This document shows positions 13,780-62,211 of a DNA stretch of 64,000 nucleotides, in pieces (positions within the stretch are counted from its first letter, which is position 1; every line of letters begins with the position of its first letter). Source of the DNA: Octopus vulgaris (Eukaryota); contig OX597842.1 in NCBI GenBank assembly GCA_951406725.2, positions 29,078,001 to 29,142,000 on the forward strand, in the 5' to 3' direction. The translations under genes and the position numbers were made by a program. The notes under the pieces are model-generated. The model saw only the letters and a program-made list of their open reading frames with translations. It did not search any database and had not been told where the DNA came from.

Positions 13780-15653
13780 CATCATCATCATCGTTTAACG
13801 TCCGCTTTCCATGCTAGCATGGGTTGGACAGTTCAACTGGGGTCTGGGAAGCCAGGAGGCTGCACCAGGCCCAGTCTGATCTGGCAATGTTTCTACGGCT
13901 GGATGCCCTTCCTAATGCCAACCACTCCATGAGTGTAGTGGGTGCTTTTTACGTGCCACCTGCACAGGTGCCATACAAGTCTAGTAAACGGCCACGGTCG
14001 GACGGTGCTTTTTACGTGCCACCGGCACAGAGGCCAGGCGAGGCTGGCAATGGCCATGGTCGGATGGTGCTTTTTACGTGCCACCGGCACGGAGGCCAGG
14101 CGAGGCTGGCAATGGCCATGGTCGGATGGTGCTTTTTACGTGCCACTAGCACTGGCAACGGCCACGTTCGGATGCTTCTCTTATGTGCCACCAGCACTGA
14201 ATCACAGCGACAATTTCCATTAATGTTGATCGATTTTGATTTTTGATTTTGTCATTTTTTGATTTTTTGATTTTTGATTTTTTGATTTTCACTTGCCTCA
14301 ACAGGTCTTCACAAGTAGGGTTTTGTGTCCCACGAAGGAAAGATATGCATAAGTGGACTGAGGCCATAGGTGATGGTCTCACTTGCCCTGCCGGGTCTTC
14401 TCACGCACAGCATATTTCCAAAGGTCTCGGTCTCTTGTCATTTCCTCGGTGAGACCTTCAGTTCGAAGGTCGTGCTTCACCACCTCGTCGAAAGCTTTCT
14501 CCATGTCAACGAAAGCCAGGTACAGGGGCTTATCTTTGGCTATATATTTCTCCTGCAGCTTTCTTACCAGGAATATGGCATCAGTGGTGCTTTTCCCTGG
14601 CATGAATCCAAACTGCATCTCATCTAAACTAACTCTCTCTCTAATTAGTTGGGCCATGACCCTCTCTGTAACCTTCATTACCTGATCCAACAGCTTGATA
14701 CCTCTGTAATTATTTGTATCTAGGGCGTCACCTTTACCTTTGTAGTTGACTAGTATGCTGCTACACCAGTCATTGGGTTTGACTCCTTCGTGTATCACCT
14801 GGTTAACTATATGGGTGACTAGGCTATAGCCAACACTGCCAGATATTTTGAGCATCTCTGCAGTAATTCCTGTTTGACCTGGGGCTTTCCCTGTCTTCAT
14901 GCTTCTAATTGCCTAAACTACCATGGAACTGTCAACTCGGATAGCTGGTCCCTCTATTGGGTCGACATTCGGCAGACTCTCTTTATCCCATTCATTCTCT
15001 TTGTTGAGCAACCTTTCATAGTGGCATCTCCAAACCTCTCTCTTTGCATCCTCATTTAGCGCAAGTGAACCATCCTCCATGCGAACACATTTCTCTCCTA
15101 CCACATCACGATTCTCTCTCACACACTGTCTTGCAACATGAAACACCTCAAATCTTTGGTCCTCACGGCGCAGAACATTGGCAAAGTTTTTCTTATCTGC
15201 TTCCCCTCTGGCTAAATATACCTGTCTCCTAGCTTCTCTTTTCGCAGTCTGATACAATTCCCTACTACCGCCATTCCTCCAGTCCTTCCAAGCCTGTCTC
15301 TTGTCTCTAATAGCCCTGTCTACAACATTGATCCACCACCACGTTACCCTGGGACGAGATAGGACTTTACTCCATCCACAGATCTGGTCAGTGGCACCCA
15401 GCAGATTGTCCCGTAGAAACCTCCAGTTGGTTTCCACATTATGTGATGCCATATCCTCTTCTATTTCGTCAAAGGCGTCAAGTAATATGTCCCTAAATCT
15501 CTGTCCATTTGCAGGATCTTTAAGCTTCCAGATCCTTCTTCTCCATCTTGGTCGTCTTCTGGTCTTCCTCTTAGTCCTGATCCTAAAGTCACTAACTACC
15601 AGTCTATGTTGTGGGGTACATTCCTCGCCTGGAAAGGTTTTGGCATTTATAAG
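13780..15653 (-). mobile_element. RTE-clade LINE, 5'-truncated and internally deleted, with 3' UTR and (GAT)n tail
   Basis: ORFs 14913-15656 and 14379-14900 are in frame across one TAG. They cover the endonuclease end (QHRLVV), linker and RT motifs (KAPG, NYRGIKLL, QFGFMPGKST, FVDMEKAFD), fused to the C-terminal EVVKHDL...DRDLW. Confidence 0.9.
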
Positions 15654-15669
15654 CATATATATATATATA

Positions 15670-15743
<74 letters not shown>

Positions 15744-15746
15744 ATG

Positions 15747-15813
<67 letters not shown>

Positions 15814-19719: not shown

Positions 19720-21187
<1,468 letters not shown>

Positions 21188-21844
21188 TATGAGAGAATAA
21201 TCTGTCATAAATATCACAATAATAGTGTGTTCTTCAAAATTCTGTGGATGTTAGTGTTTAGTTGTGTCACTATTTCCAGAGAATAATTTAATCTTATGTT
21301 TTATTCGTTTGTGATTTTACTTAATGTCTAAAATAGAAAATGTAAACTGTCAAATCTTTTGTAAAGTTATCCAATGTTAATCAACCTGTTAATTGATAAT
21401 CTCCTCTACATTCCAGACAGTGGAGAAAAAAAAATGTTGTTGTTAATTACAATGTCCAGAAATTTTTTCCCATCATTTGTTGAAGATCTAATTTATATTA
21501 AGAGGTGGATGTATTGATGAATGTTTCTTGTGGACGTCCTTCAGTCAAGGAAAGTCAATAAAAACATCAGAGGCACGTCTGAATGAAGAAATTTCTTTTA
21601 TGTCGACACGATGTGATATTCTGAAATAAGAAAAGAGGCAGTAAGATAAAGTGGATAGTTAAACAACAGAGTTATTCAATTTTACGACATCAATTGACAT
21701 CCATTTAATATCTACGTTTGCATGGGGCAGAATCCATTGAGGCATTGAAAGTTTTACAACATTCTGTATATAGATGAATCATTTTTACCTTTCTCTAATT
21801 ATTTATCTCTTTTCTTTCTCTTCTCTCCTTTCACTTGTTTCACC

Positions 21845-27290: not shown

Positions 27291-27445
27291 ATTTGATGCT
27301 CAGGAAAGTGAGAAAGTCTTTGTAGGTGGAGGGGGATGTCAGTGAAGAGAGAAATTACGTAGGAATAAAGAGAAGAAGTTGGGGTCAGGAGAAGTATAGT
27401 TAAAACACCATTTCCCCCAAAATAATTACCACAAGTATTGGAATG

Positions 27446-28180
<735 letters not shown>

Positions 28181-30714: not shown

Positions 30715-31414
30715 CTATGTATGTACAAGGCAAGAAGTTAAAAATTCTTTTGGCCTATGACACTACATGGAACCTAAATAAGGCATGCGTAAAATTTAAA
30801 TGAAATTTGTTGTGTACTTCTCAAGATTTAAGGCTTCACACAGACACACAGACAGATACACATTCTCATCTTTATATATATGCATGTATGTATGTATGTA
30901 TGTATGCATGTATGTATGTATGTATGTATGTATGTATGTATGTATGTATGTATGTATGTGTATATGTTTGTGTGTTCTCCCAACATCACTTGACAACCGA
31001 TGCTGGTATGTTTACGTCCCCGTCACGTAGCGGTTCAGCAAAAGAGGTCGATAAAATAAGTACTAGAATTTATAAGCCTAGTACTTTAGTCGATTTGCTC
31101 GACTAAAGGCAGTGCTCCAGCATGGCCGCAGTCAAATACATACATACATATATATAAATACATATATGTACGTGTGTATGTATGTATGTATGTATGTATG
31201 TATGTATGTATGTATGTATGTATGTATGTATGTATGTATGTATGTATAGTTATGGTATATTATGTTAAGAACATAGTACAGTACAATATAAAGTACGCCC
31301 ACCCTATATATCGCCTGAGGAAACACATCATGATCTCATAATGCAGGGAAACAGTTGCATAATCAAGTACCTGCACTCCTGGAGAACTACATTGCGTGGA
31401 AACAATTGTAGTGA

Positions 31415-31514
31415 NNNNNNNNNNNNNNNNNNNNNNNNNNNNNNNNNNNNNNNNNNNNNNNNNNNNNNNNNNNNNNNNNNNNNNNNNNNNNNNNNNNNNN
31501 NNNNNNNNNNNNNN
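31415..31514. other. Assembly gap (100 N)
   Basis: Run of N; linkage of the left and right halves is scaffold-inferred. Confidence 1.
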
Positions 31515-32793: not shown

Positions 32794-33835
32794 GGATCTT
32801 TACCTTTCGACCGGCAGATTTAGAAATAATTTTTGTAACTAAACACTTTCAAACTTCGTATTCTGGTAGAATGTGTCGTATAAAACATCTTTTACTCTTA
32901 GCGTTTTTGAGAAAAGTTTATATTTACAAAGTTATTTCGTGTTAAATTTGTTGTATTTCAGTAATTTCAACCAATCAATGATGTGTATTCAGCTGAATAA
33001 AATTACTGCTAACCCATGCTAGCATGCAAAGCGGACGTTAAAGGATGATGATGATGATGATGATGATGTTTGTCAACAACAACTGGTGGTATATATTTCG
33101 TTTGTTGTTGTTATTTATGACATCGTTCGTGCGTTTGTACTGGTTTTAGCTTTAAGGTGTTAGGGTTAGGGTTTTAGGGTTAGAGTTAAGGTTTTAGTGT
33201 TAGGGCTAGGGTTTTAGTGTCAGGGCTAAGGTTTTAGGGTTAGGGTTAGGGTTTTAGGGTTAGAGTTAAGGTTTTAGTGTTAGGGCTAGGGTTTTAGTGT
33301 CAGGGCTAAGGTGTTAGGGTTATGGTTAGGGTTTTAGGGTTAGAGTTAAGGTTTTAGTGTTAGGGCTAGGGTTTTAGTGTCAGGGCTAAGGTGTTAGGGT
33401 TAGGGTTAAAAATGTCTTACCGAAAATAGTAGCTGAAAAACAGGAAAAAACATAACTAAAACCAGTAGAAATGCACGAACGATTCTGGTGGTGCCATGAA
33501 GTAAACATGTTTCAGATAGACTCGTTTTTCATACAAACATAACTGAGATGAAATATGTCATAAATAACAGTGACAAACGAAATATACACCGCCAGAAGTT
33601 GTTGTTGACAAACAACGGCAGTAATTTTATTCAGATGAATACACGCCATTGATTGGTTGAAATTACCGAAATACGACAAATTTAACACGAAATAACTTTG
33701 TAAATATAAACTTTTCTCAAAAACGCTAAGAGTAGAAGATGTTTTATACGACACATTCTACCAGAATACGAAGTTTGAAAGTGTTTAGTTCCAAAAAATT
33801 ATTTTCTAAATCTGCCAGTCAAAAGGTAAAGATCC
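32794..33835. mobile_element. Foldback-type TIR element with ~300-bp inverted arms, central telomere-like array and 8-bp TSD
   Basis: GGATCTTTACC...GGTAAAGATCC termini flanked by perfect CCAAATCC duplications (32786-32793, 33836-33843). Confidence 0.9.
33150..33408 (+). repeat. Interstitial degenerate (TTAGGG)n array with 80-nt higher-order period x3
   Basis: Units at 33161, 33241 and 33321 are nearly identical. Confidence 0.9.
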
Positions 33836-34013: not shown

Positions 34014-34219
34014 TTAATTGAATTCTGATGATAAACATTCAAGTGCATCATAATATTCAGTTTTTTCAAGAGCTTCTTTTAATATTGGAAGTGTACGTTT
34101 CTCTGGATCATTATCGCGATACCATTTGAGCAGCATCTGGAAGCCTTGTTCCACAACGTCAAGAGGATAGTCCTGCCTGATGATTTCCAAGTCATTTTGT
34201 TTAATTCCTAATTCCCTTC
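34014..34219 (-). CDS. Last exon: death domain
   Basis: tttcttttgcag|GA AGG; [63 protein letters not shown]. Confidence 0.9.
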
Positions 34220-37200: not shown

Positions 37201-39482
37201 CAATTGAGAAACAAGATCAAGTTGAGTTTGAATTTTCTGTTGAGATTCTTTTTTTTTTCTAATATAAATGAGTGTTTCATTAACTTACAATGCTGAGTTC
37301 AATCCAGCCATGAACACAATCAACAATGGGGCCTGTCTTCTATAGAGACAGGAAATATATGTTGACCTGGGACTAAAGAATTACAATAAATATAGAAAAA
37401 CAGACTGGCCAGGGGAGAGATGACAACATGTCCCACACAATGCACACTCTCATTTTAAAAAGGTTACACTTGATAATGTGGTCCTCTTCACCCAAGAGAA
37501 AGAGCGATGGCACATCTGGAACCCTTTCCCCTTAATTCTGCCAGATTAAGGCAGATATCTGCCGAAATAAACATCAACAACAACAACACTCTACTAGTAA
37601 ACTTAGTAAAAGTGTAAACAAGCAAAAACATTGTCATTAATTCACCTGTTTACTCTTAAACAACAATATTTTTGAGTCCCCTTTTACAAACGATAGTATT
37701 AACTCTACTGGACCTTCTAATTTATACATTTTACAACCGTGCTGACGTCCGTAGATATTTTATGAAATTTCAGTGATAGCTTTACTTTATAGCTAAACTT
37801 TCAATTGGAAATTAGGAATGGAACCGGTTCTCAGTCATTCAAACAAACAAAAGTTTAGCTGAAAGTAAAATTTATAGAAATTAATTGGGTATTTTATACT
37901 CACCAAGTTCCATCCATTTACCTGCCAACTTTTGGGACACCCTATGAAGATGCTTCTCCTCTACCATTACAGACTCTGAAATAAATATTTCCAAATTTTA
38001 CACTTCATAGCACAATTTCCCGATCTCTGTTAATGGTTTATATATTATTATTGTAAGACATTCCTATCATCAATGGACAACTTCTGACCACTATAGGTTT
38101 GGTTGACACTTTTATACTTCCTACAGTGGTCCTATATAATGGCTCAATATTTAGGTCCATAACAAAATAGACTGACCTTCCTAAGCCTCCTTTTTCTATT
38201 AAGACATCCTACTTAATCTAACAATGTTGCAATCATCTTATTTAATGATCACATGTTAACACCTTTTATCTTTCTTCTCTCTTATATCCATGCTAAACCT
38301 ATGACATGGCATTGTCCCCTCACCACTGGACTTCACTTAATCAACATTCCCCTCATCTTTTGCTTAATTCTGATGTCAACCAAGCTGGTCATCAACGACC
38401 TTGACACAAACTCATGTCACACCTGTTATCTTTGTCAAACGTTGCTGCTTTTAATCTTTAATTTTAAACTATGCAACTCACAGTTCACCAGAATTTCATC
38501 TGATTCAGGAAATATTTAAGGACTCCTTAATGAAATGCTTCTCTTTCCTGATGAGCAATGATTAGTTCTACACAGGTGAAACAGAAAGTGATAGCAAGTA
38601 TCCTAAAACACTGTATACTTGCACAAAACATCTTTAACAACATGCAAATGTTCATACACAGATTATCGCAAAGGAAAAACATCTGAAATGGTACAAAAGA
38701 AGTGATATTTAAGAATATATTATCAAGATGGTGATATAGATCAAACTTCAAGCACCAAATCTTGTTTTTGCCCAGAAGTTTTGACTTGGCAAATGCTTAT
38801 TGCCCATCCTCGGTTTCTGCAATGACATCAATGCCTCTACTCTTATCGGATAATGAGATCGTCTACCACAGTCCAAAACGTTTTACAAGTTACTCTTTAA
38901 CCTTTCGCATCGTTTCTCCTGCTATTTTGAACTTCACTTGCTTCTGTTGACCTTTCACAAATGTCAGAATGCATTCATTATTTGTTTCAAACAGCATTCT
39001 TGAGCAATTAATTAGTCCATCCAATCTATCTAGGACTGATTGCATATACTTTGGATCTCTTGTTAGCATTTTTATGTCATCCATGAATGTCTTCTGAGGT
39101 GATTTCGCCTGAGTAATTTCTTCTCATAAATCTGCCGATCCCCATAACAAGCACAAACCAAGTGACTGATTGTGTGCAACCTACAGCTATTCCAGTTTCA
39201 ATGTTGGACACATGAAAATCTTTCTAGTGCTTGTGCCACATTAAAATGTACTCAGGACTCTTTATGAAGTGGTTGGTGTTGGGGAGGGCATCCCACCATA
39301 GAAAAGGTGGAATGTTTAAGGGAGATGTATTTCTCAAGCAGTCAAGGGGGACAGTAACTCTGAATAAGAACTGACTTGGACAGTGATCACCCATCCATTA
39401 CATGGAAGCAAGGAGAGCAGACTGTAAATGATGAGGACAATAACATCGATTGTTTTGTATCTTGCAACCAGTGTCCATCTTA

Positions 39483-39554
<72 letters not shown>

Positions 39555-42500
39555 AATTGTCTCAGCAGCAGACCAAAGCTTCTTACTTGGACAAAGACAT
39601 CGTTTAATGGATGTAATGATAGATTTACTAAGAGTGAAAAAAAAGACAGGGTGATCACACTTGTAAGCTTTCAGCTTAACCATCTTGTTCAACAAGAACA
39701 TCAACAACAATAATCAGTAAACTTATTGAAAACGTACAACAAACAAACACTGTCATTAACTCACCTGTTTACCATTAAACAACAAAATGTTTTTCTTCCT
39801 TCATTCAAAAGACAATATTAACTCTATTGTTTTTTTTTTCTAATTTAACCATTTTAGCAACAGAGCCAACACTGCTGGACATTTTATTAAATTTCTGTAA
39901 TATCAATATTTTAAATACAATTCATGTTGTTACACGACTGGAAAGTACAGAGGCTGCTACATGTAGATGCATAGAGAGAGAGAGAGAGAGAGAGATGAAG
40001 GAAGAAACAGGGAAGGAGAGAGAGACAACAATGAGATGAAAGAAAAGTGAATGTATCTCATTATGGGGAGAGAACAGATTCAGGGTTTATATTTTATCTT
40101 TTGTATTTTGGCCTCATCGTGAAAGACATTTTTCCTGTGTCTCATGTTTCCATATTTCTATAAAACCCCTTTATTGGATATTCTTGCATTTGTAGGTAAC
40201 GAATAGAATTACTTTTATCGCTAACCATTCAAAAGAAATGTAACAATGGAACCTGTTCTCAGTCATTCACACAAATAATATATCTCAGGTGAAGGTAAAA
40301 TTTATAGAAATCAATTACAGTTATTTTATACTCACCAACAGACTCTACTTTTTCTTTACACTTTGGACATTCTGAAATAAGAATTGGAAATTAAGAATGG
40401 AACCTGTTCTCAGTCATTCACACAAATAATATATTTCAGGTGAAGGTAAAATTTATAGAAATCAATTTCAGTTATTTTATACTCACCAACAGACTCTACT
40501 TTTTCTTTACACTTTGGACATTCTGAAATAAGAATTGGAAATTAAGAATGGAACCTGTTCTCAGTCATTCACACAAATAATATATTTCAGGTGAAGGTAA
40601 AATTTATAGAAATCAATTTCAGTTATTTTATACTCACCAACAGACTCTACTTTTTCTTTACACTTTGGACATTCTGAAATAAGAATTGGAAATTAAGAAT
40701 GGAACCTGTTCTCAGTCATTCACACAAATAATATATTTCAGGTGAAGGTAAAATTTATAGAAATCAATTACAGATATTTTATACTCACCAACAGCTTCTG
40801 CAACCATCTTGACTGCTTTTTCTTCAGACTTTGGACACATTGAAATAAGCATTTCAAAGTTTTATACTTCATAGTAAAATTTCTTTGTCTCTTTTAATAA
40901 TCTATATTCCATTTTTGTAAGGCATTCATATCATCAATAGTCAATTGGTGACCACTATGCTTTCGGTCAACAATTTCTAAGCTGTTACTATATAATAGTT
41001 CAATATTTAGAACCACAACAAAAGAGGCAAACCTTTCTAAATCTCATCTTTCTCTTAAGACATCCTATATACTAATCTAACAATTCTGAAATTCTCTCAC
41101 TTAGTTATCACTTCATAACACTCTTTTTCTCTTAGTTTTGTCTTTCCTTTGTTATGTCTGTGCTGGTCATATGACATGCCATTGTCCTCTCATCTCGAAC
41201 CTTCACTAACCAATATTCTTCTCATTTTCTGCTAAATTCCAGTGTCAACCAAACTGGTCTTCAAAGATCTGGCCACCATGGCATGACACATTGCTTCAGG
41301 AAGGATAAACATACCCCAGCTCTCATTTTTATATGTTACTGTTGGTAATCTTTAATTTTAAATGCCCACATCACACTTCACCAGAATACCACCTGATTCA
41401 GGAAAGATCTGAAGATATTTCAATGTCATTCATCCTCCTTAATAAGCAGCTTTTTCTTTTTCCAGGTGAGCAATGATTGGTTCTACACAGGTGGAGCAGA
41501 AAGTGATAACAGGTATCCTGAAACATTACATTTGTATAAAACCTCCTTAACTTAAAACTGTTTATCTACACATTATTGCAAAGGAGTTATATCTGAAATG
41601 GGACACTAGAATTCATTCTCAAGAATATATAAGACTCGCTAAGAGTCAGATCCTTAAACTCTCAGTTGAGATTTTGTCATTGAAATTCTTACATTACAAA
41701 GCTGACTGTGATGTTGTAGGAAGTACTGTTGTCCTTAATTATCAGTTTCCCAAGATACTTATAAATCATTAACCTCATATAAAAGCTGACAACTGAATAT
41801 AAAAAGTTGATGTTTACTGATGGGACCTTGGAGATTTATTGATATTTCATTTATATTTCAGTAAAATGTATTAGTCTTATGTTGCAGACAGTACTCTTTT
41901 GATGTGGGACAGGTTTCCTACTTGGATAAAGACAATATTCAGTGGGTGTAGTCATGGATATACTATCAAAGAGAAAAGACACCTGGGACATCTTTTATCA
42001 TACGTCTGTCAGATTATGACAGATCTGGGTCGATACAACATTATTCCATTCCCTAATGTCATGTGACAAACAGACAGATCATCAAATCATATTCTTACCA
42101 ACTCTCCTTTTGCTTTCTATACATGTTTTACACTTGGGGCATCTTTTAAGTTGATTTTGCTACAATCTTCACATAAAACAGTATGTGCACAGGGTTGTAA
42201 CTCCATGCTGGCTTCATTCACTTCACAAAGCATACATCTGTGGAAAAAACATAAAACACATCCCACCTATAACATTCATTTCTAACAAATATTACATGTT
42301 TGTTTTATGTTTACAATACAGAATATTATGAAACACCAGACTGACCAGAGTGAGGTGCATGGCTAAGTTGCTAGGCTTTTGGACTCATAGAGTAAAATTG
42401 CGGTTTCAATTCCTCGACAAGGCAATGTGTAAAGTTCTTTAGCAAAACACTTCAGTCTAGGTTTGCCCTGCATACAAACCTGCCCCTTGTTATAGGTGAG

Positions 42501-45500: not shown

Positions 45501-48094
45501 GTTAGCAAGCTGTTTTTATGAATGGAATGCTAGATATTCTAGAAACTTCCAAGAGAAACGCTAAGATACTTGAATAATTAAGAATCACATCTTATGACAC
45601 AGATGTTGTGAGAAACTTAGTGAAGCGAGGTTACTCTATAGGCTTTCTTGCAAGGGAGATCATTCAACTATTTAGCTACAGACCACTACACTCCTGATGT
45701 ACCTTTTTATGCCTCTTTTACTGTTAGCCTTTCTGTTTTTTGTGTTTTATTCTATGTATCGTGCATTTACTCCTAGCTTTCATAACGGTCTTTCTTTACT
45801 TGACTAAGCACTGCTTTCCATCCCCTCTTTTACCCTTTCCCAGTAAGTTGTAGTACACCTCAGCTCTGTATACATTATGTTATTACAATACTTGCATAAA
45901 AGATTATTTGCTAATAAATAAGTCCAACCAATGCTTGTCTATCGGATAAAACAGAGCTATATTTATACAGTTCAGAAATCAACATCTAAAGACAATATCT
46001 GAATTTCAACAGACAAAGAAAGTTATGCATATTCTCACAGAGAATAATGTGTCTTGTTCATCAGCAGCTAACAAATATATGGCAAAGTAACAGCTAAAAC
46101 TTATGAAATACAGGAGTCTAATGTGACCAAGAAGCCTAAAAGACTAAGAATGGTATAGGTGTTACCAGAACGATTTATGTTTCCTGGCAATTTTATTCTG
46201 TGAAGATGTGTGTCAGTGTTCTAGCAATATTAACAGAAATATGTGTGTGTGTGTGTGTGTACATAGACTTGGTGACCCTGCCAGTGCTGGGGCCACATAA
46301 AAAGCATCCCGTCCACACTGTAAAATGGCTGGCATTTGGAAGGACATCCAGCTGTAAAAACCATTCCAAAGCTGGCCTTGCCTGCGCTGGTGTTACTCAG
46401 TCCACTCTGCTGGGCATGCCAAAACAGACAGAAGTTTGGTGTAGACTTCTGGCGGGCTCCCTTTCAAACCATCCAACTCATGCCAGGATGGAAACGGACG
46501 TTAAGCAATGATGATAATGATGTTGATGATATATATACACACACTGTTTGGGTGTGTAGTTTATTTTCTTATGAAACCTTTCAGAATAATGAACTGATTG
46601 GAACAGAGAAGAGAGAGAACATGTTGGTAGACAGATTAATTTCATTTGTTTTTATGTAACAACTTCAAAATCTGTTCATTCACTTCACTGTTTAGTTCTA
46701 CATTTTCTTATTGGTCACAAATCTTTAAAATAGGGAACTAAGAAAGGTAGATGGGTGGTGGTAGACAGTGAGGTACAACTACCAACCCAAACAGTGCTCT
46801 TCATTGGATCACATAACAACTGCATTTTGTTTATTGTTCTTCATACTATTGTTGTGTGGCCTTTGATCAAGACACTATGGCAGTATAATGTATTGGTAGA
46901 ATTAAAATTAAACAAACATAAACATGATTATATACAAAATAGAAAATAAACTGTCACTGCCAACGAATACTTACTTTTGTGGGGGGAATAATTCTTTAAA
47001 TTTTTCTTTCAAATCTGCATCCCCAATGAGGTCCAATGGAGCTACATTCTCATTATTTTTCCTGTACAAGTTGGCCCCCTGGTGGGCTAGATAGCCAGCG
47101 ACTCCTACACCAGAGAGCCTCTTTTCGGTCGGCAACCCAAGCTTAGCACAGCACTACAAATGACAAAGTATAAAATGATGATTACAATATTTCACAAATA
47201 TACTTCGTAGATACCCAAATTACACAACAGTTCAACTACGTATACAAATAGTTTGTATCTCCAGCGCTTAAACTGATTGCACAATATTAAGTTCCGACAT
47301 CATCTCTAATTGAATCCATTTCCCATTTTCATTTGTTTTTAGTCTATTCTCAACATTATGACATATTTTATATATATGGTCATTATATTAAACAGAACAA
47401 ACATTACTGATTAACATCAAGTTTATTGGTAATTAATGCGTAAATAATCATTTGCCAATCACAAATATCACAAGATATTCAATAAAAAACAATTTAAAAC
47501 CAAATCATAGCATCAAGTCAAATATATGGAATATAATGGAACAAACATCACAAATATTAGAACACAACAAACTATCTATTCAACTAGCTTGGTGAATCCA
47601 TAAATGGCCATCACACAAGAAATATGGAGGAGTATTGTATATATAAATATAACACAACAACATGACAGCAAACAAGTTACATGAGAACTGAGAATACTTA
47701 GAACAGACACAACAACAAAAGCAACACCACACAGACATATCCAAAAATAACAACGTTTCCATAATTAATAAAGAAACTTCTTTGGATAATGAAGGTGAAG
47801 TAAAGGAAGTAAGAATTAGTGTCACAGTTGAGGCAGCACACCAACACATTATAGTTAATAAACTGCTCAAACTGTTAGACAATTCCAGTTGGGTGGGTAG
47901 CTGACTGCAAGAGTGGCTTCTTCTCACCAAAGTAGACATTACTACAATTTACATATGATCATCAAATGTCTGAAATAGAGTCACACATCAGTAGTGACCT
48001 TTATTTATACGGGAATCAAAGAGTCGATTGAATTCTGAAACAGTAGACAATATATACCATCAGATCTCCCGATGGATACATGTTGATGCATTTG

Positions 48095-48146
<52 letters not shown>

Positions 48147-51100
48147 AGAGAGAGAGAGAGAGACAGAGAAATAAATATGTAGTTGAACACACGCAACCTA
48201 CATACAGGAAAACACACTAAGGACCTTCGTTCATTGTATCCATTCTCTAGTGTTCTAACATTCAACATTGTGATGACATGTCTACAGGAAACCAGTGGAT
48301 ACACATTGTGTGCAAGATGTGTGATAAAGAGTCGTTTCGGGAAGAATTCTTCACAGAATGGTCTGGATGCATTTATCATGGCACCAGCATTATAAAGGTT
48401 ATCGTCTATCATGTCCCACAGACCTCTCCTCCTCCCTGTTTCATTGTTATTTGGGAATGTCTCCTCTTTGTCATTGGTCACCTTTCCTTCACACTGTGAT
48501 GGCTGTGTTTATATAGCCAACAAGATGGGTTACCTCCTTTACAGGGGAGAGAGCATGCCTTCGAGGGTGAAAGGAGATGGAATATAGTTAGTTACATAAT
48601 ATAACTAGGGTTATCTGGATTGACTGGATTACTTAATACTAATGGAAGAGAGGTGGATGGGAGTGAATAGACATGGCAAGCAATGTCTGCCCGTTTCTCT
48701 ATTTCTCTCTCTTTATCTTACACACACACACACACAAGCTCACACTTCTACTCATCCTCCTCATCATCATTTAATGTCCATTTTCCATGCTGGTGTGGGT
48801 TCAATGGTTCAGCAAGGGCTGGCCAACTGCAGAGCAGCTCAGGGTCCAATTGCCAGGTTTGGCATGGTTTCTGTGGTTGGATGCCCTATCTAATGCCAAC
48901 CACACACACATTCACAATCAATTTAAAAAACTTACCTCATCTAAAATGGTAATATGTTCCTTCTCAGAACAAAATTCCTCTTTCTCTGCTGCAATATGCA
49001 AACAATTATTGCCATGCTTGTCGATGGCATTCATATTTGCACCGCACGTGATTAGTTTGTGGACTATTCCGATGTGGGCTGCATACACGGCTTCCAGTAA
49101 GGGTGTTCTTTTATCATTGTTCGCAATATCCAGTTTCACTGAATCCTTTGTGGAAGTAAAAATAGAAATTGAAAATGTACATGAAAATTAGGGTGGATGT
49201 GACATTGCTGTCTTCTACTGGGTACTTGATCAACCTGATCATGTACATTTGATGTTTGTTAGTGTAGTCAACCTTCTGTAAGGTCCCTCTATAACACGCT
49301 ATGGATATTTGTTAGGGACATGATAAATCTATTAAGATGTCATAAACAGATTGTTTCAGCCTCATCTTCATTTATCCCTCACTATATAGTATGTTTTAGG
49401 GGACTAGAACAAGAGTGAAAATATAATTAGCAGATCAAGTCTAGTAAAGACGAATTATATACTTAGTGTAAGCCTTTCATGTTGCTATGTTAATAAGGGA
49501 TCCATAAAACGGGGGAGTTGGTTAGTGTCCACATCCTTACATCACTGTACATACAGTTGCATAAATATATTAACGTTATGGATGTAACACGCACACACAT
49601 ATATATACACACACACACATATTCATATAACAATCAAAATTGCCATTGAATATATATATATATATAATATATAAATATATGCATATTTACATAAATATAT
49701 GTACATACCTACATATATATATATATGTATATATATACATGCATATATGGGTACAAGACATAAAACAAACAGATCTCTTGGATCCACTTTAGACAGCCTC
49801 TCCTTCTCTCACGCGTTCTCTACATTTAGGAGCCTTTCATAGTGGCACTTCCAAGCCTATTTCTTTGCAGAGTCACTAACTGCAACGGAGCCATCATCCA
49901 TGTGAACACACTTCTCTCCCACAACATCACAATTTTCCTTGGTAAGCCAAAACACTTCAAATCTCTGGTCCTCACATTGCAAGACATTGGCAAACTTCTT
50001 CCTTTCTGCTTCACTCATGGCTGAGTATACCTGCTTCCTAGCTTCCTTTCTAACTGCCAGATACAACTCCCAGCTGCCACCACCCTTCCCATCCTTGTCC
50101 CTGTCAATTACCCTTTTCCACCACCACATCACCCTATGCCTGGCTGGGACATTGCACCAGCTACAAATTTGGTCTGAAATTCTCAGCAAGTTGTCCCATT
50201 GGAACTTCCACTTATCCTCAATGCTGCAAGTCTGAAATTCCTCCTCCTTCCCATTATATGCTTCATTTAGGACATCACTAAATTTCTGACTAATTGAAGA
50301 TTCCTTCAGCTTCCATACTCTTCCTTTCCAAACTGGCTTGCTTCTTGGAATCCTTCAAGCCAGTAGCTTGAACTCCCTAATGAGTAACCTATGCTGTGGG
50401 CTACATTCTTCTCTATTGAAGGCCTTTGCATTTACGAGCAGCCATGAATCCTGCTTTTGGGTGAGAATGTAGTCAGTTTGGTGAGCATGTACCTTGGATT
50501 TATAGGTTATCAAGTGGCTGGCCAGCTTTCTGAAGCAAGTGTTGCGATTATTTGGTCATTTGCACCACAGAACTCCAGTAGCCTTGCACTCCCCTCATTT
50601 CAGGAACCAAATCTGCGTCCCCCATGGAAGATACCTCGGTGCTGCCCAACATATCCATTGAAATCACTGGCCACGAAGATAAGGTCACAGTCATTTATCT
50701 TTGAAGTGGCCAGCAGAAGAGTGTCATAGAAGTAGCCCTTCAGTTGATTTGGCAGACCCAGTTGTCTGTGTGTGTGTGGGGAGGAGCGCATAGGACGAGA
50801 TGATTGTTGCTGTGCCTACATTGACTGCAGCTATCAGCATCTGAAAAGGTTGTTTATGGACACCTGTAAATAGGAGTTAATCAGGTATTGTCACCACCAG
50901 CAGTGGAGGGTGCCGCATCCTGGCATTCATGCAATGCAATGTTAATACAAATACAGGTAAATAAGGTAGGTAGACAAATACAGTAAGGGTAGTTAATCCG
51001 TTGAGTTAGGTAGGGAGAGGACAAGGGAAGTTGATTCATCATGTATTGATGGTAATGGATTAACGAAGCAATAGGGACTGAGTGCAGCGTACCCTCATTT

Positions 51101-53126: not shown

Positions 53127-55668
53127 CAAAATAAGAAAATGGAGAAATACACCTTAATCAATAATCAACTACCAGATAATACCCAATCACATAATTTATT
53201 AACCAACTACATATGAACATCAAGGTCAAACATAATAGTACAGAACAAAACAATGCACATCAATGAGTAATATGATACAATAAGTAAAGGAACCGAAACA
53301 TGTAAAATTCATAAGAAAATTAAAATTTATCGAATATAGTAGCGTTTTCAAACCTCTTTTTTACAAATATATATACATATATAAACAAATACATATACCC
53401 GAAAACAACCACGCACACATATATGTATATATATACATACACATACATACTGTTAACTAAAATAGTATTAAGAATCATTAAAATTAAGATAATATTAATT
53501 GTTAATACAACGAAAGGGGTTGGAAGGGCAATTCGTAATATACAAAAAAGAGGGGCCTAAAAGGGTAGAAAAAGGTAAGGGTTAATAAAAGGCAAAGGTT
53601 GGAAAATATTGAGATAAAATTTATAAGAAGGGTATAAACTCAAAACCCAGATTTACCATAACCAGTGTAAAGAAGATGTAGGTTATTTGCATAAGATACA
53701 TAATTAAAAATTACACCACATATTCCGTAAACAATCAGAAGACTAGGAAACCGTCCAGATATCAACACTTGTAAATTTTATCTGAATATTTTCCAACAGT
53801 AATCAGACACAAGAACAGGAGTAAAGAGGAGGACAATTTATTAAATGAACCCCTGGATATTACTGGTACAGATTTTGAGCCCAGGAGTTGAACTTGGAAC
53901 ACAAACGGATCAAAGTAAGGGGATGATTCTGCATTTAGCCCAGGGCCAGAGGAAAGAGGAAAATTTCAAGAGAGCGGGGTGGGTGAGGTGTTTTACATGG
54001 AATGAAAGGAAGAAGGGAGAGGATTTGAACCTGTAACGTTGAGGTAACGAAGGATGAGATGAAGTAAAGAATCCAGTCAGGTAACAACAACAACAACAAT
54101 AATTATGATGATTAATTAATGAAGTTAGATTACAGTGTCATTAGAGTGAGAGAGAGAGAGAGAGAGAGAGGGGTGAAGCATGACGACCCATGGTGGGATT
54201 ATGACATGAATGACTCGAAACAAGAAAACAAACATTAAAGAAACAGATTTGGATAATCCAAATCCATTGGGGACTTACTTTTGAACTGCCAGATGGAGAG
54301 GGGTGTCACCGTCTTCGTCCACCTTATTGGCATCGATGCCATTCTGTTGCAGGAGAAGTTCAACAACTTCCTTGTGTCCATGAATAGAGGCAATATGAAG
54401 AGGGGTGAGACCATGATTGGTCACAGCACAGATGTCAGAGCCATTCTGTTGCAGGAGAAGTTCAATAACTTCCTTGCTTCCATATTGACATGCAATATGG
54501 AGAGCTGTCCAACCATCTTCCTTCACAGCATTAACATCGATGCCATTCTGTTGCAGGAGAAGTTCAACAACGTCCGTATGTCCATATTGACAGGCAACAT
54601 GGAGAGCTGTCCAACCATCTTCCGTCACAGCATTAACATCGATGCCATTCTGTTGCAGGAGAAGTTCAACAACTTCCTTGTGTCCATTAGCAGAGGCAAG
54701 ATGTAGAGGGGTGAAACCATGATTGGTCACAGCACAGATGTCAGAGCCATTCTGTTGCAGGAGAAGTTCAACAACGTCCGTATGTCCCCTCTGACAGGCA
54801 AGATGGAGAGCTGTCCAACCATCTTCCGTCACAGCATTAACATCGATGCCATTCTGTTGCAGGAGAAGTTCAACAACGTCCGTATGTCCCCCCTGACAGG
54901 CAATATGGAGAGCTGTGAAACCATTTTCCATCACAGCATTAACATCGATGCCATTCTGTTGCAGGAGAAGTTCAACAACTTCCTTGTGTCCATTAGCAGA
55001 GGCAATATGAAGAGGGGTGAAACCACGATTGGTCACAGCACAGATGTCAGAGCCATTCTGTTGCAGGAGAAGTTCAACAACGTCCGTATGTCCTTCCTGA
55101 CATGCAAGATGGAGAGCTGTCCAACCATCTTCCTCCACAGCATTAACATCGATGCCATTCTGTTGCAGAAGTTCAACAATGTTTATTTGTCCATAGTAAC
55201 AGGCATAATATAGAGCTGTCCAACCGTTTCTATTTCGCTGATTAACCTAAAAAAGATAAACAATAAAGACATTAAAGATGGTGTTTATTGGGGGAAGAAG
55301 GAAAAAAAATGAAAAATGTCAGAAAAAAAGAATCAGATTAATTTAAACAGGTGGAATGAAGGTGGGGGGAAAATAAATGAGATTTATAATGTGTCTATAC
55401 ACACACATATATGTGTATGCATATATATATATATATATATACACTCTCGCACATACATATATACATAAATACCTATATATACATACGTGTTTTATATCTT
55501 CACTGATCATTTGTTTATGCATTTTTGTGTATATATGCGTTTATGTGTGTGTATATTTGTGTATGTATGTACAGGTCTGTGTGAGCTGAAGAAAAGTTTT
55601 TAATTAAAAACATATAAATATAAACTGTTTCATATACATATAACACAAACCAACATACATATCATTAT

Positions 55669-55710
<42 letters not shown>

Positions 55711-55875
55711 TCGCTGACCTGTAAATTGTTATTTTCTTTGCTATTTAACAGGACTTTGACTACATCTTCATAGTTCTTCCACACAGCCAGATGTAGAGGT
55801 GTTTCGCCCCATGAGTCCTGCTTATTAACATTTGCTCCCCTGGAGACTAAGAAGGCCACAGAATCCGTTTGGTGG
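34014..55875 (-). CDS. Ankyrin-repeat / RING / death-domain protein (Mind bomb MIB2-like E3 ligase with C-terminal death domain); multi-exon, 5' exons not identified
   Basis: Exons with canonical AG/GT and compatible phases: 55719-55875, 54279-55246, 51675-51711, 48936-49145, 46975-47153, 42099-42237, micro-exons 40638-40673/40487-40522/40336-40371, 37904-37975, 34014-34219. About 700 codons; needs +1 nt in the RING exon. Confidence 0.85.
36038..36903 (+). mobile_element. RTE LINE 3' portion (intronic, antisense to host gene)
   Basis: MLHGSETW...[13 protein letters not shown]...GRGRPRKTW, then family 3' UTR and (GAT)n tail. Confidence 0.9.
37904..37975 (-). CDS. Exon: first helices of the death domain (72 nt, phase 1-1)
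   Basis: tatttcag|AG TCT GTA...GAA CTT G|gtgagt; [25 protein letters not shown] joins RELG in the last exon. Confidence 0.85.
38740..39200 (-). mobile_element. Non-LTR retrotransposon RT relic (R2/Hero/NeSL-like)
   Basis: FMDDIKMLT...[16 protein letters not shown] plus an upstream GIAVGCT-like motif. Confidence 0.55.
40336..40371 (-). CDS. 36-nt micro-exon copy 3 ([12 protein letters not shown])
   Basis: cttatttcag|AATGTCCAAAGTGTAAAGAAAAAGTAGAGTCTGTTG|gtgagt, phase 1-1. Confidence 0.7.
40487..40522 (-). CDS. 36-nt micro-exon copy 2
   Basis: Identical to 40336-40371 including splice sites. Confidence 0.65.
40638..40673 (-). CDS. 36-nt micro-exon copy 1
   Basis: Identical to 40336-40371 including splice sites. 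Confidence 0.65.
40789..40839 (-). CDS. Related 51-nt exon ([17 protein letters not shown]) with non-canonical AA acceptor
   Basis: Intact gtgagt donor; acceptor reads cttatttcAA where the sister copies read cttatttcAG. Confidence 0.45.
42099..42237 (-). CDS. RING-HC finger exon with 1-nt deletion
   Basis: ttttccacag|A TGT...; [31 protein letters not shown], then +1 A at 42144-42147 restores [16 protein letters not shown]|gtaaga. Confidence 0.85.
43200..45190 (+). mobile_element. Heavily decayed CR1-type LINE
   Basis: Remnant motifs: [39 protein letters not shown], and a 3' end similar to the 8672 copy. Confidence 0.7.
46975..47153 (-). CDS. Exon: last ankyrin-like repeat before the RING
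   Basis: tttgtag|TGC...AA|gtaagt; [59 protein letters not shown], resembling the pre-RING segment of Mind bomb proteins. Confidence 0.85.
48936..49145 (-). CDS. Ankyrin-repeat exon (70 codons)
   Basis: ccacaaag|GAT TCA GTG...GAG|gtaagt; [12 protein letters not shown]...[19 protein letters not shown]. Confidence 0.9.
49780..50800 (-). mobile_element. Decayed RTE LINE fragment (endonuclease/linker)
   Basis: ASDFNGYVG and EDQRFEVF...DVVGEKCV, homologous to ORF 14913-15656. Confidence 0.8.
51675..51711 (-). CDS. 37-nt ankyrin exon ([13 protein letters not shown])
   Basis: Strong polypyrimidine tract ...aactttcag|T CAA GAC...CAG|gttagt. Phase 2 to 0 exactly bridges the flanking exons and completes the repeat begun by TPLHLAVQ. 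Confidence 0.8.
51810..53130. repeat. Long (TA)/(CA)/(TACA) compound microsatellite
   Basis: Visible low complexity; source of spurious ORFs longer than 400 aa. Confidence 0.95.
54279..55246 (-). CDS. Large ankyrin-array exon (~9.5 repeats; 8 near-identical 34-aa units)
   Basis: ORF 54275-55138 extended to acceptor ttttttag|GTT AAT; donor AA|gtaagt; 102-nt periodicity. Confidence 0.95.
55719..55875 (-). CDS. Ankyrin-repeat exon (most 5' exon found)
   Basis: ttcctttcag|C CAC CAA...CAG|gtcagc; [35 protein letters not shown]. Confidence 0.9.
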
Positions 55876-56029
55876 CTGAAAGGAAGAAAAACAAACATAA
55901 AACATCACATTCACTTAATAATTACATTAAATATACACTCGTGTTCCATTAAATGCATAAAAACCTATGTATACTACAGCCTCGTGTGTGTATATATATA
56001 AATATATATGCAAATATGTATGTATGTAG

Positions 56030-57226: not shown

Positions 57227-58040
57227 AACACACACACACACACTCTCTCTCTCTCTCTCTCAAACACATGCATATACATTTGCACAAGCACATAGTAATT
57301 AATATATAAGCGTACACACACATACAAACGACACACACACACACACACATCTCTCTCTCTCTCTCTCTCAAACACATGCATATACATTTGCACAAGCACA
57401 TAGTAATTAATATATAAGCGTACACACACACACAAACGACACACACACACACTCTCTCTCTCTCTCTCAAACACATGCATATACATTTGCACAAGCACAT
57501 AGTAATTAATATATAAGCGTACACACACATACAAACGACACACACACACACTCTCTCTCTCTCTCTCAAACACATGCATATACATTTGCACAAGCACATA
57601 GTAATTAATATATAAGCGTACACACACATACAAACGACACACACACACACACACACACTCTCTCTCTCTCTCTCTCAAACACATGCATATACATTTGCAC
57701 AAGCACATAGTAATTAATATATAAGCGTACACACACATACAAACGACACACACACACACTCTCTCTCTCTCTCTCTCTCTCTCTCAAACACATGCATATA
57801 CATTTGCACAAGCACATAGTAATTAATATATAAGCGTACACACACACACAAACGACACACACACACACTCTCTCTCTCTCTCTCAAACACATGCATATAC
57901 ATTTGCACAAGCACATAGTAATTAATATATAAGCGTACACACACATACAAACGACACACACACACACTCTCTCTCTCTCTCTCTCTCTCTCAAACACATG
58001 CATATACATTTGCACAAGCACATAGTAATTAATATATAAG

Positions 58041-58074
<34 letters not shown>

Positions 58075-58674
58075 CTCTCTCTCTCTCTCAAACACATGCA
58101 TATACATTTGCACAAGCACATAGTAATTAATATATAAGCGTACACACACATACAAACGACACACACACACACTCTCTCTCTCTCTCTCTCTCTCTCAAAC
58201 ACATGCATATACATTTGCACAAGCACATAGTAATTAATATATAAGCGTACACACACACACACAAACGACACACACACACACTCTCTCTCTCTCTCTCAAA
58301 CACATGCATATACATTTGCACAAGCACATAGTAATTAATATATAAGCGTACACACACATACAAACGACACACACACACCCTCTCTCTCTCTCTCTCTCTC
58401 AAACACATGCATATACATTTGCACAAGCACATAGTAATTAATATATAAGCGTACACACACATACAAACGACACACACACACACTCTCTCTCTCTCTCTCT
58501 CTCTCTCTCAAACACATGCATATACATTTGCACAAGCACATAGTAATTAATATATAAGCGTACACACACACACTCTCTCTCTCTCTCTCAAACACATGCA
58601 TATACATTTGCACAAGCACATAGTAATTAATATATAAGCGTACACACACATACAAACGACACACACACACATAC

Positions 58675-58706
<32 letters not shown>

Positions 58707-61530
58707 CACATGCATATACATTTGCACAAGCACATAGTAATTAATATATAAGCGTACACACACACACAAACGACACACACACACACTCTCTCTCTCTCTC
58801 TCAAACACATGCATATACATTTGCACAAGCACATAGTAATTAATATATAAGCGTACACACACATACAAACGACACACACACACACTCTCTCTCTCTCTCT
58901 CTCTCTCAAACACATGCATATACATTTGCACAAGCACATAGTAATTAATATATAAGCGTACACACACATACAAACGACACACACACACACCTCTCTCTCT
59001 CTCTCTCTCTCTCTCAAACACATGCATATACATTTGCACAAGCACATAGTAATTAATATATAAGCGTAACACACACAACAAACACACACACACACACTCT
59101 CTCTCTCTCTCTCTCAAACACATGCATATACATTTGCACAAGCACATAGTAATTAATATATAAGCGTACACACACATACAAACGACACACACACACTCTC
59201 TCTCTCTCTCTCTCTCTCTCAAACACATGCATATACATTTGCACAAGCACATAGTAATTAATATATAAGCGTACACACACACACAAACGACACACACACA
59301 CACTCTCTCTCTCTCTCTCAAACACATGCATATACATTTGCACAAGCACATAGTAATTAATATATAAGCGTACACACACATACAAACGACACACACACAC
59401 ACCTCTCTCTCTCTCTCTCTCTCTCAAACACATGCATATACATTTGCACAAGCACATAGTAATTAATATATAAGCGTACACACACATACAAACGACACAC
59501 ACACACACTCTCTCTCTCTCTCTCTCTCTCAAACACATGCATATACATTTGCACAAGCACATAGTAATTAATATATAAGCGTACACACACACAAACGACA
59601 CACACACACACTCTCTCTCTCTCTCTCTCTCAAACACATGCATATACATTTGCACAAGCACATAGTAATTAATATATAAGCGTACACACACATACAAACG
59701 ACACACACACACACTCTCTCTCTCTCTCTCTCTCAAACACATGCATATACATTTGCACAAGCACATAGTAATTAATATATAAGCGTACACACACACAAAC
59801 ACACACACACACACACTCTCTCTCTCTCTCTCAAACACATGCATATACATTTGCACAAGCACATAGTAATTAATATATAAGCGTACACACACATACAAAC
59901 GACACACACACACACTCTCTCTCTCTCTCTCTCTCTCTCAAACACATGCATATACATTTGCACAAGCACATAGTAATTAATATATAAGCGTACACACACA
60001 CACAAACGACACACACACACACTCTCTCTCTCTCTCTCAAACACATGCATATACATTTGCACAAGCACATAGTAATTAATATATAAGCGTACACACACAT
60101 ACAAACGACACACACACACACTCTCTCTCTCTCTCTCAAACACATGCATATACATTTGCACAAGCACATAGTAATTAATATATAAGCGTACACACACACA
60201 CAAACGACACACACACACTCTCTCTCTCTCTCTCAAACACATGCATATACATTTGCACAAGCACATAGTAATTAATATATAAGCGTACACACACATACAA
60301 ACGACACACACACACACTCTCTCTCTCTCTCTCTCTCTCAAACACATGCATATACATTTGCACAAGCACATAGTAATTAATATATAAGCGTACACACACA
60401 TACAAACGACACACACACACACTCTCTCTCTCTCTCTCTCTCTCAAACACATGCATATACATTTGCACAAGCACATAGTAATTAATATATAAGCGTACAC
60501 ACACATACAAACGACAACACACACACACTCTCTCTCTCTCTCTCTCAAACACATGCATATACATTTGCACAAGCACATAGTAATTAATATATAAGCGTAC
60601 ACACACATACAAACGACACACACACACACACTCTCTCTCTCTCTCTCTCAAACACATGCATATACATTTGCACAAGCACATAGTAATTAATATATAAGCG
60701 TACACACACATACAAACGACACACACACACACTCTCTCTCTCTCTCTCTCTCTCTCTCAAACACATGCATATACATTTGCACAAGCACATAGTAATTAAT
60801 ATATAAGCGTACACACACATACAAACGACACACACACACACTCTCTCTCTCTCTCTCAAACACATGCATATACATTTGCACAAGCACATAGTAATTAATA
60901 TATAAGCGTACACACACATACAAACGACACACACACACACTCTCTCTCTCTCTCTCTCTCTCAAACACATGCATATACATTTGCACAAGCACATAGTAAT
61001 TAATATATAAGAGTACACACACATACAAACGACACACACACACACACACTCTCTCTCTCTCTCTCTCTCTCAAACACATGCATATACATTTGCACAAGCA
61101 CATAGTAATTAATATATAAGCGTACACACACACACACACTCTCTCTCTCTCTCTCTCTCTCTCTCAAACACATGCATATACATTTGCACAAGCACATAGT
61201 AATTAATATATAAGCGTACACACACATACAAACGACACACACACACACACACTCTCTCTCTCTCTCAAACACATGCATATACATTTGCACAAGCACATAG
61301 TAATTAATATATAAGCGTACACACACATACAAACGACACACACACACACTCTCTCTCTCTCTCTCAAACACATGCATATACATTTGCACAAGCACATAGT
61401 AATTAATATATAAGCGTACACACACATACAAACGACACACACACACACTCTCTCTCCCTCAAACACATGCATATATATTTGCACAAGCACATAGTAATTA
61501 ATATATAAGCGTACACACACATACAAACGG
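57227..61530. repeat. Compound minisatellite, ~42 units of ~100 bp
   Basis: Near-invariant core caaacacatgcatatacatttgcacaagcacatagtaattaatatataagcgta followed by variable (CA)n(CT)n. Confidence 0.97.
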
Positions 61531-62211
61531 ACATATACATACACACACATACGCACACAAGCATACATTACACGTTCGTGTTTTGCCCCTTGCCGCAACA
61601 AATTTGCACAAAAGGTAAATAAACCAGGAGGGGGGGAGTTCAATGTTTCATCGTTTCGGGGTCGATAAATTAAGTACCAATTACGCACTGGTGTCGAGGA
61701 TTTTCCCCCCAATTTATATCACAGCTTCCGACAAGCTGGGGGCATCATTTTATGAAAAAATACTTCGCAAATTTTTACAATACGACTCACACTCCACGCG
61801 CAAACTCGAGACCGATTTAGGCATATTATTGTTTTGTTTTTGTTGTTTCTGGCCATTCAAAACCATGGGAGAAGCCTTTTTGGTAAAAAAAAATAAAGAA
61901 AATATTCAAAAAATATCGTTAATATTTTTATTGGGCGACGAAATTAATCGATTTAAGAAATATAGCTGTTATTTCTAGCACATGTAGAAGACAGAAGAAG
62001 AGGTAAATAATTTGAGCTCGAATGCTGCGATTTCATTGGTTAAAATTCTTAAAATTAAACTACGTTTAAGTTACGAATTACAATTTTGTTTTCAATTTTG
62101 TTTACAATAATGTTTTCTTTTGACACATTCTACCAGTATACGAAGTTTCAAATTGTTTAGTTAACTAGGAAAATCTGGCCCTCAAAATGAAAAGATCCTA
62201 TATGGATATAT

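Follow-up and report, generated by a model that had tools for sequence, protein, structure and literature searches.

The micro-exon genes (MEGs) of Schistosoma contain tiny symmetric exons and, by skipping them, produce sets of near-identical, fast-evolving proteins (PMC4350168). There, the coding region consists mostly of micro-exons, and the proteins are either secreted or associated with glands (PMC4350168). The exon-shuffling receptor families of Ectocarpus combine fast birth and death with one repeat per exon, variable exon number and fast-changing exons, the repeated exon encoding a folded ligand-binding repeat of the LRR or TPR type (PMC3341825). The octopus array described here works like both systems and belongs to neither. 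Unlike a MEG, it encodes a short linker between the domains of a larger protein, and its source exon is traceable; in contrast to the Ectocarpus repeats, its unit is a decayed piece of another domain. The array lies in a 64,000-nucleotide stretch of Octopus vulgaris DNA, which we call the window and to which all positions refer unless stated otherwise.

The proteins of the family to which the window gene belongs are automatically named after Mind bomb (MIB1/MIB2). This "MIB2-like" label arises because ankyrin repeats are followed by a C3HC4_3 RING (Pfam), as in Mind bomb. MIB proteins carry MIB-HERC2, ZZ and SH3_15 domains before the ankyrin repeats. Pfam detected none of these three domains in the five family proteins scanned, some of whose models may lack the N-terminus, and the octopus proteins differ from MIB in having one RING only plus a C-terminal death domain (DD). 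All close protein relatives of the window gene are from Octopus. The literature searched yielded no description of the family or of its exons, although genome-paper supplements, which lay outside the search, may list the family; the accessible parts of PMC11463336 and PMC11703226 do not treat it.

The window gene occupies the minus strand and runs from ankyrin exons (55898-46976) through a RING exon (42237-42099) and the linker array to two DD exons, so that the four units of the array sit in a gene with at least seven other coding exons. Searches with family proteins (tblastn) placed ankyrin-repeat exons at 55714-55898 (82-87% identity) and 48937-49146, both with approximate limits, and an exon 5' of the RING exon at 46976-47153 (90% identity to P0004). 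The large ankyrin-repeat exon at 54278-55246 is matched by tblastn, has a 323-codon open frame and contains a 102-bp tandem period (8.4 copies in Tandem Repeats Finder, TRF). Within this single exon the tandem at 54331-55225 has a 306-bp higher-order period (90% match), and ankyrin repeat number varies between family proteins. DD exon 1 (37904-37975; 72 nt, phase 1-1) was recognised by the homology of its flanks and by its joint to exon 2 in four of four runs, and DD exon 2 (34014-34219), which carries the stop codon, by homologues and a Pfam Death match (E 7.7e-8).

The RING exon is of C3HC4 type and was recovered by tblastn in two frames. In the assembly it measures 139 nt, one base too few near 42153 and just ahead of its CPKC tail, which places the RING tail out of frame. 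P0058, the public protein model that matches the window exons, stops at this frameshift and includes neither the array nor the death domain. A 1-nt insertion at 42153/4 was found in all six distinct sequencing runs compared (88 of 288 depth in X3), to which paralog contigs may contribute; the gene is thus probably intact in other animals. The intact RING exon of the paralog L041 matches Pfam zf-C3HC4_3.

Other features are scattered through the window. Two minus-strand C2H2 zinc-finger arrays with an 84-bp period (19803-21250 and 27442-28180) are each broken by a stop or frame break. Two copies of a minus-strand fragment that may derive from a LINE reverse transcriptase, judged by resemblance, lie at 14382-15809 and 49860-50555. 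A 99-bp satellite of about 42 copies, built on (CA)n and (CT)n tracts, spans 57232-61544, and a degenerate TTAGGG-like array with an 80-bp higher-order unit lies at 33159-33409, about 600 bp beyond the stop codon of the gene. Short tandem units at 20-59 and 132-168 recur reverse-complemented at 543-582 and 434-470, suggesting that 13-582 is one long inverted repeat. An assembly gap (run of N) falls at about 31400-31510.

Between RING and DD, TRF reports a 151-bp unit in 3.7 copies (98% match, 40235-40794). It comprises three identical minus-strand exons, AATGTCCAAAGTGTAAAGAAAAAGTAGAGTCTGTTG, each preceded by TTATTTCAG and followed by GTGAGT, with 115-nt introns and phase 1-1 (copy 1, 40638-40673; copy 2, 40487-40522; copy 3, 40336-40371). 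All three 36-nt units have a length that is a multiple of three, equal phase on both sides and GT-AG splice sites. The preliminary description had listed the repeat, its GTGAGT donors, its intron length and its phase, and both TRF and the sequence confirm them. It had missed the origin of the units and a fourth unit of 51 nt (40789-40839) ahead of the three 36-nt exons, whose acceptor is dead, reading CAA where paralogs have CAG. The CAA acceptor base is covered by contigs of X6 and X20 with no difference listed. Run evidence at the locus consists of short-read contigs, among them a 37-nt X6 contig that is identical over 40639-40674. The exact 36-nt exon with its splice sites occurs five times in the genome, three times in the window and twice in one paralog; a reversed control occurs nowhere.

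The units derive from the class of exon that DD exon 1 represents. The segment that holds the array (39697-41630) is a duplicate, homologous by blastn to 37570-38720 around DD exon 1, with 69% identity over about 950-984 columns, 72% over 226 and 79-85% next to the donors. The 51-nt window unit matches the DD exon 1 segment at 89 of 101 aligned bases past the donor and at 32 of 40 before the exon, and at only 21 of 44 positions inside the exon. Flank identity of 69-88% identifies the linker units, on sequence grounds, as shrunken copies of DD exon 1 (72 to 51 to 36 nt). The direction was presumably from DD to linker, because the DD needs that exon. A RING-exon origin was rejected: blastn finds no match of the RING exon to the unit flanks, which match DD exon 1 instead, and the codons of the unit and the RING tail differ (Ser TCT and AGC, Arg AGA and CGA, Pro CCA and CCC, respectively). 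The earlier suggestion that the units began as spare RING C-termini was therefore wrong.

Paralogs display the intermediate forms. In L066 and L080-L082 the RING is followed directly by DD exon 1, without a linker. Decayed 72-nt copies are present in L079 (three copies) and L045 and read, for example, SLNLEENRSH. Further paralogs have 72-nt units with FEDKGVQTD, 51-nt units, CxxC units (CPRCREKAVKT) and 36-nt units, and SPKFEEKGVQTVA closely resembles DD exons of the type TPKLEEKCLQDVA. In an intron-only tree of 101 columns, the L079 linkers (G000:C8, about 118.80 Mb) group with their own DD exon 1 (99/98) and are by this sequence criterion an independent repeat of the DD-exon duplication; the same short alignment leaves deeper forks, including a single origin of the motif-bearing lineages or of the CxxC units, unseparated. 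The exon type is common to O. vulgaris, O. sinensis and O. bimaculoides, so the idea that the array was caught during amplification holds for the three copies of the window gene only.

The death domains themselves show some variation. The synonymous share of DD exon 1 across paralogs is neutral (0.241 vs 0.239), hinting at diversifying death domains. DD exon 1 is only 57 nt in some copies (L061, L067, L068), and O. sinensis has isoforms five residues shorter. L073 (G000:C31, about 7.30 Mb) encodes two tandem death domains with a 51-nt linker unit between them.

We compared 53 regions, the window and 52 paralogous regions from two genome searches. Only the best 40 of 296 and the best 40 of 327 candidates were scored, which makes the family counts lower bounds. 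Linker units number 146 in 46 of the 53 regions, with 1-9 per region and two arrays in L040; three intron-fragment hits (L056) and one mis-parsed hit (L075) were left out of these counts. Length is a multiple of three in 136 of 143 measured units, and the other seven are singletons. An AG acceptor was recognised in 141 of 146 units and a GT donor in 140, and six units of the NRTF/SPKF type have dead donors. Tandem 36-nt units are also found in the close paralogs L039, L040, L041 and L044, at 1-4 each with slightly different copies.

Units of this family are used in transcripts. Exon joints, read as CT..AC, were taken from four runs of four studies, which are RNA by our guess and also cover introns. 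Among the 15 of 94 joints listed at 90% likeness, the 36-nt unit is joined to DD exon 1 in all four probable RNA runs, the RING to the 36-nt unit in X6 and a 51-nt to a 36-nt unit in X15; DD exon 1 is joined to exon 2 in four of four (90% likeness). Joints of the 36-nt unit with the RING and with DD exon 1 map to copy 3, although the identical copies are indistinguishable from each other. A 36-to-36 joint was found neither among these 15 nor among all four joints at 97%. At 97% likeness over 40200-42300, the DNA run X2 has no exon joints, and the RING to 36-nt joint of X6 is not among the joints listed. Two RING joints listed at 97% have paralog-type first bases, and loose contig ends of X6 and X1 run at 97% from the 36-nt exon into a 51-nt exon. 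The joints called at 90% likeness are not tied to the window locus, since the identity of close paralogs over the searched stretches is higher still, at 95-100%.

RefSeq isoforms add to this picture, with the reservation that they are pipeline models and that near-identical exons may inflate their number. For one O. sinensis gene, 15 of the 16 subsets of four units, one of them a 36-nt CPKC exon, are present among the isoforms retrieved. Another gene has isoforms that include both or either of two units, and an O. bimaculoides gene has an isoform that skips one of two. At the level of the family the units are spliced into transcripts. The earlier notion of a linker tunable by copy number or splicing stands at the same level, on 1-9 units per region, GT-AG joints and combinatorial isoforms; for the window locus we infer variable inclusion of the three copies.

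Stop codons are avoided in the units. In the splice-defined frame, stops occur in none of 82 distinct exons, while 44 and 78 of these exons have one in the two alternative frames; seven out-of-frame units and one decayed L051 unit were left out of this scoring, as from the synonymous-share and LC8-motif scoring. The expected number of stops is 5.4-7.9, based on a minimal count of 149 codon changes (P 0.004-0.0004). This conservative range was used because a higher expectation of 18.4 is inflated by recombination. In the young clade alone the difference is not significant (0 stops vs 2.1 expected, p 0.13). The young clade gave no sign of purifying selection on the peptide, either in pN and pS (both 0.140 for 83 distinct units, dN/dS about 1) or in the synonymous share (0.275 vs 0.235 under neutrality, p 0.16). 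Exon divergence is 2.6 times that of the adjacent introns (0.14 vs 0.054), non-synonymous variants number 41 where 26.6 are expected at the intron rate (p 0.006), and the first cysteine (Cys1) is retained in 46 of 49 peptides. Avoided stops together with a loosely held peptide fit a translated spacer, perhaps under some diversifying pressure.

The 36-nt units are symmetric micro-exons from a DD exon 1 duplicate and likely act as a spacer set by copy number and skipping. A tunable spacer is the best supported reading of the array, and we hold it to be probable. Near-identical introns would promote unequal crossing-over and thereby changes in copy number. Because any subset of units keeps the frame, RING and DD would be separated by 0-36 extra residues with 0-3 copies, and these residues would tune the reach or the assembly of the ligase. 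A motif for docking the dimerising hub LC8 (K-x-V/T/S-Q-T) was likely present in the older 51- and 72-nt units; a 15-nt in-frame deletion would have removed it in giving rise to the 36-nt form. CxxC would have arisen by point mutation and was most likely tolerated rather than needed. Exon divergence above that of the introns and the non-synonymous excess would not be expected of a passive spacer; the retention of Cys1 and the frameshifted RING exon ahead of the array in the assembly also speak against the reading.

The putative docking motif belongs to the older units. Multivalent LC8/DYNLL clients such as ASCIZ likewise carry repeated short K-x-[TVI]-Q-T motifs (PMC3078936, PMC6607443), and the LC8 consensus is given as [DS]-K-x-[TVI]-Q-[TV]-[DE] (PMC3078936). 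Many peptides that bear the anchor nevertheless fail to bind LC8, and hydrophobic residues at +2 are poorly accommodated (PMC6607443). In three octopus species the older units have the sequence K-x-[VTS]-Q-T, a docking motif of the LC8 type. Among 66 distinct 51- and 72-nt linker peptides, 3 match the consensus at 6/6 positions, 4 at 5/6 and 16 at 4/6, whereas DD exons match at 2/6 positions at most. The K and Q of the motif are already present in some DD exons (TPKLEEKCLQDV). In the majority sequences of six lineages, a comparison that excludes two motif-less linker lineages (two of the six intron-defined lineages are without the motif), K, Q and T alone are invariant among 14 columns, each with synonymous codon variation. 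All four O. bimaculoides records contain DCPKLSDKGVQTVAESV, retaining DKGVQT. An O. sinensis gene reads ENKEVQTP, and two related records show a QK variant. The genome contains an LC8 gene without introns.

In contrast to clients such as ASCIZ, the octopus motif is a predicted docking site; in most young units it has the weaker residues E at -4 and V at +2. The consensus is absent from the window units: the motif region is deleted in the 36-nt form and unit 1 reads KAVKM. Binding of LC8 by the older units, as predicted from the motif, is possible at somewhat less than even chances.

The cysteines invite another explanation, in which CPxC[KR] units have converged on the last zinc pair of the RING and complete, or compete for, its second zinc site, so that splicing tunes the ligase. 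In the window unit, as in RING zinc ligands 7 and 8, the CxxC has K/R behind it and a hydrophobic residue at +4 (CPKC-K-EK-V); the 36-nt peptide shares 7 of 10 residues, plus a V/I pair, with the RING tail, in different codons. The preliminary description had read the peptide as mimicking the last Zn-binding pair of the RING; the likeness is there at the protein level and is convergent, and the RING tail that was quoted for it is out of frame in the assembly. The single-base steps CPKSE, CPKCE, CPKCK, CPKCR and CPRCR are all observed, and one unit has lost both Cys together (YPRY). In RINGs the linchpin position lies directly after the last zinc ligand. A cationic linchpin residue is reported to be important for RING activity (PMC12326332). 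In the units, the residue past Cys2 follows that of the gene's own RING, being R in 9 of 12 CxxC units of CPICR genes and K in 7 of 8 of CPKCK genes, but this match rests on two gene clades and so on about two events.

The best case for such a role is L042. An 18-nt deletion has removed the RING CPKC from this gene and its O. sinensis counterpart, and both begin their arrays with two CxxC units; where a RING is visible in other genes, 18 of 19 begin with a non-CxxC unit. In L042:1775-1900 (G000:C29, about 21.23 Mb) a RING minus its last Cys pair is followed by two CPKC units. MAFFT placed the unit opposite the tails of intact RINGs, and the Pfam RING profile spans positions 4-40 of 49 without the unit and 4-48 with a 36-nt unit (P0045), although the gain is small (28.0 to 29.8 bits) and the score is 27.1 with the 51-nt unit first. 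AlphaFold gave no usable model for the deleted RING with the 36-nt unit when the alignment did not pair the unit with RING tails (pLDDT 45 overall), and pLDDT stayed under 50 at residues 289-351 for the same construct when it did. The L042 case is suggestive of a RING-completing function.

For the family at large, several findings speak against rescue of the RING. Three genes with a damaged RING (L062, L063 and L066) are devoid of CxxC units, L052 begins with such a unit despite its intact RING, 7 of the 17 36-nt units read CSKC, and dN/dS is about 1. The window gene has a RING tail and needs no spare. We consider convergence on the zinc pair with a tuning function unlikely, and a zinc role of the CxxC units in any form doubtful, if less so.

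Both motifs may also be joined in one history. Here, a DD piece would have become a plug-in LC8 docking exon, whose copies and splicing set the LC8 dimers that clamp two ligase chains, and a younger lineage would then have acquired a C-P-x-C-[KR] tail able to rebuild a lost RING zinc site. This succession of roles, drawn from the motifs, is rather improbable. If true, splicing in dozens of octopus genes would turn a ubiquitin ligase on or off or shift it between states.

The exon type could also be real and the triple array of the window an assembly expansion, or a by-product without a role in a decaying copy. In favour of this are the three identical exons in an array with a 98% match, the RING frameshift, the dead acceptor of unit 1, the end of P0058 at the frameshift and the want of a 36-to-36 joint among the joints listed. 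The tandem copies in L039, L040, L041 and L044, however, differ slightly, which is unexpected from assembly error, the missing RING base is present in six of six runs, and the exact exon is confined to two loci, with an exon-sized X6 contig matching it. We regard expansion or decay as quite improbable. Least probable of all is that CxxC units bind zinc among themselves, as CxxC-x8-CxxC in one chain or between chains in the manner of the Rad50 zinc hook, so that zinc dimerisation replaces LC8: CxxC does accompany loss of the motif Q in young-clade 51-aa-type peptides (12 K/3 Q vs 9 K/20 Q, Fisher p 0.004) and the 36-nt form deletes the LC8 motif, but this association is confounded by shared descent and recombination, and in many genes there is at most one CxxC unit.

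Neither tandem exon duplication nor arrays of symmetric micro-exons are new. What is unusual about the octopus array is that the whole series can be read in one genome, from a 72-nt domain exon to a linker, to motif gain, to shortening to 51 and 36 nt and to multiplication. This series of exon decay was repeated independently at least once. Behind the "MIB2-like" label the array exposes a fast-evolving cephalopod family of ankyrin-RING-death-domain proteins with at least about 50 loci, and the architecture of this family suggests a part in immune or cell-death signalling.
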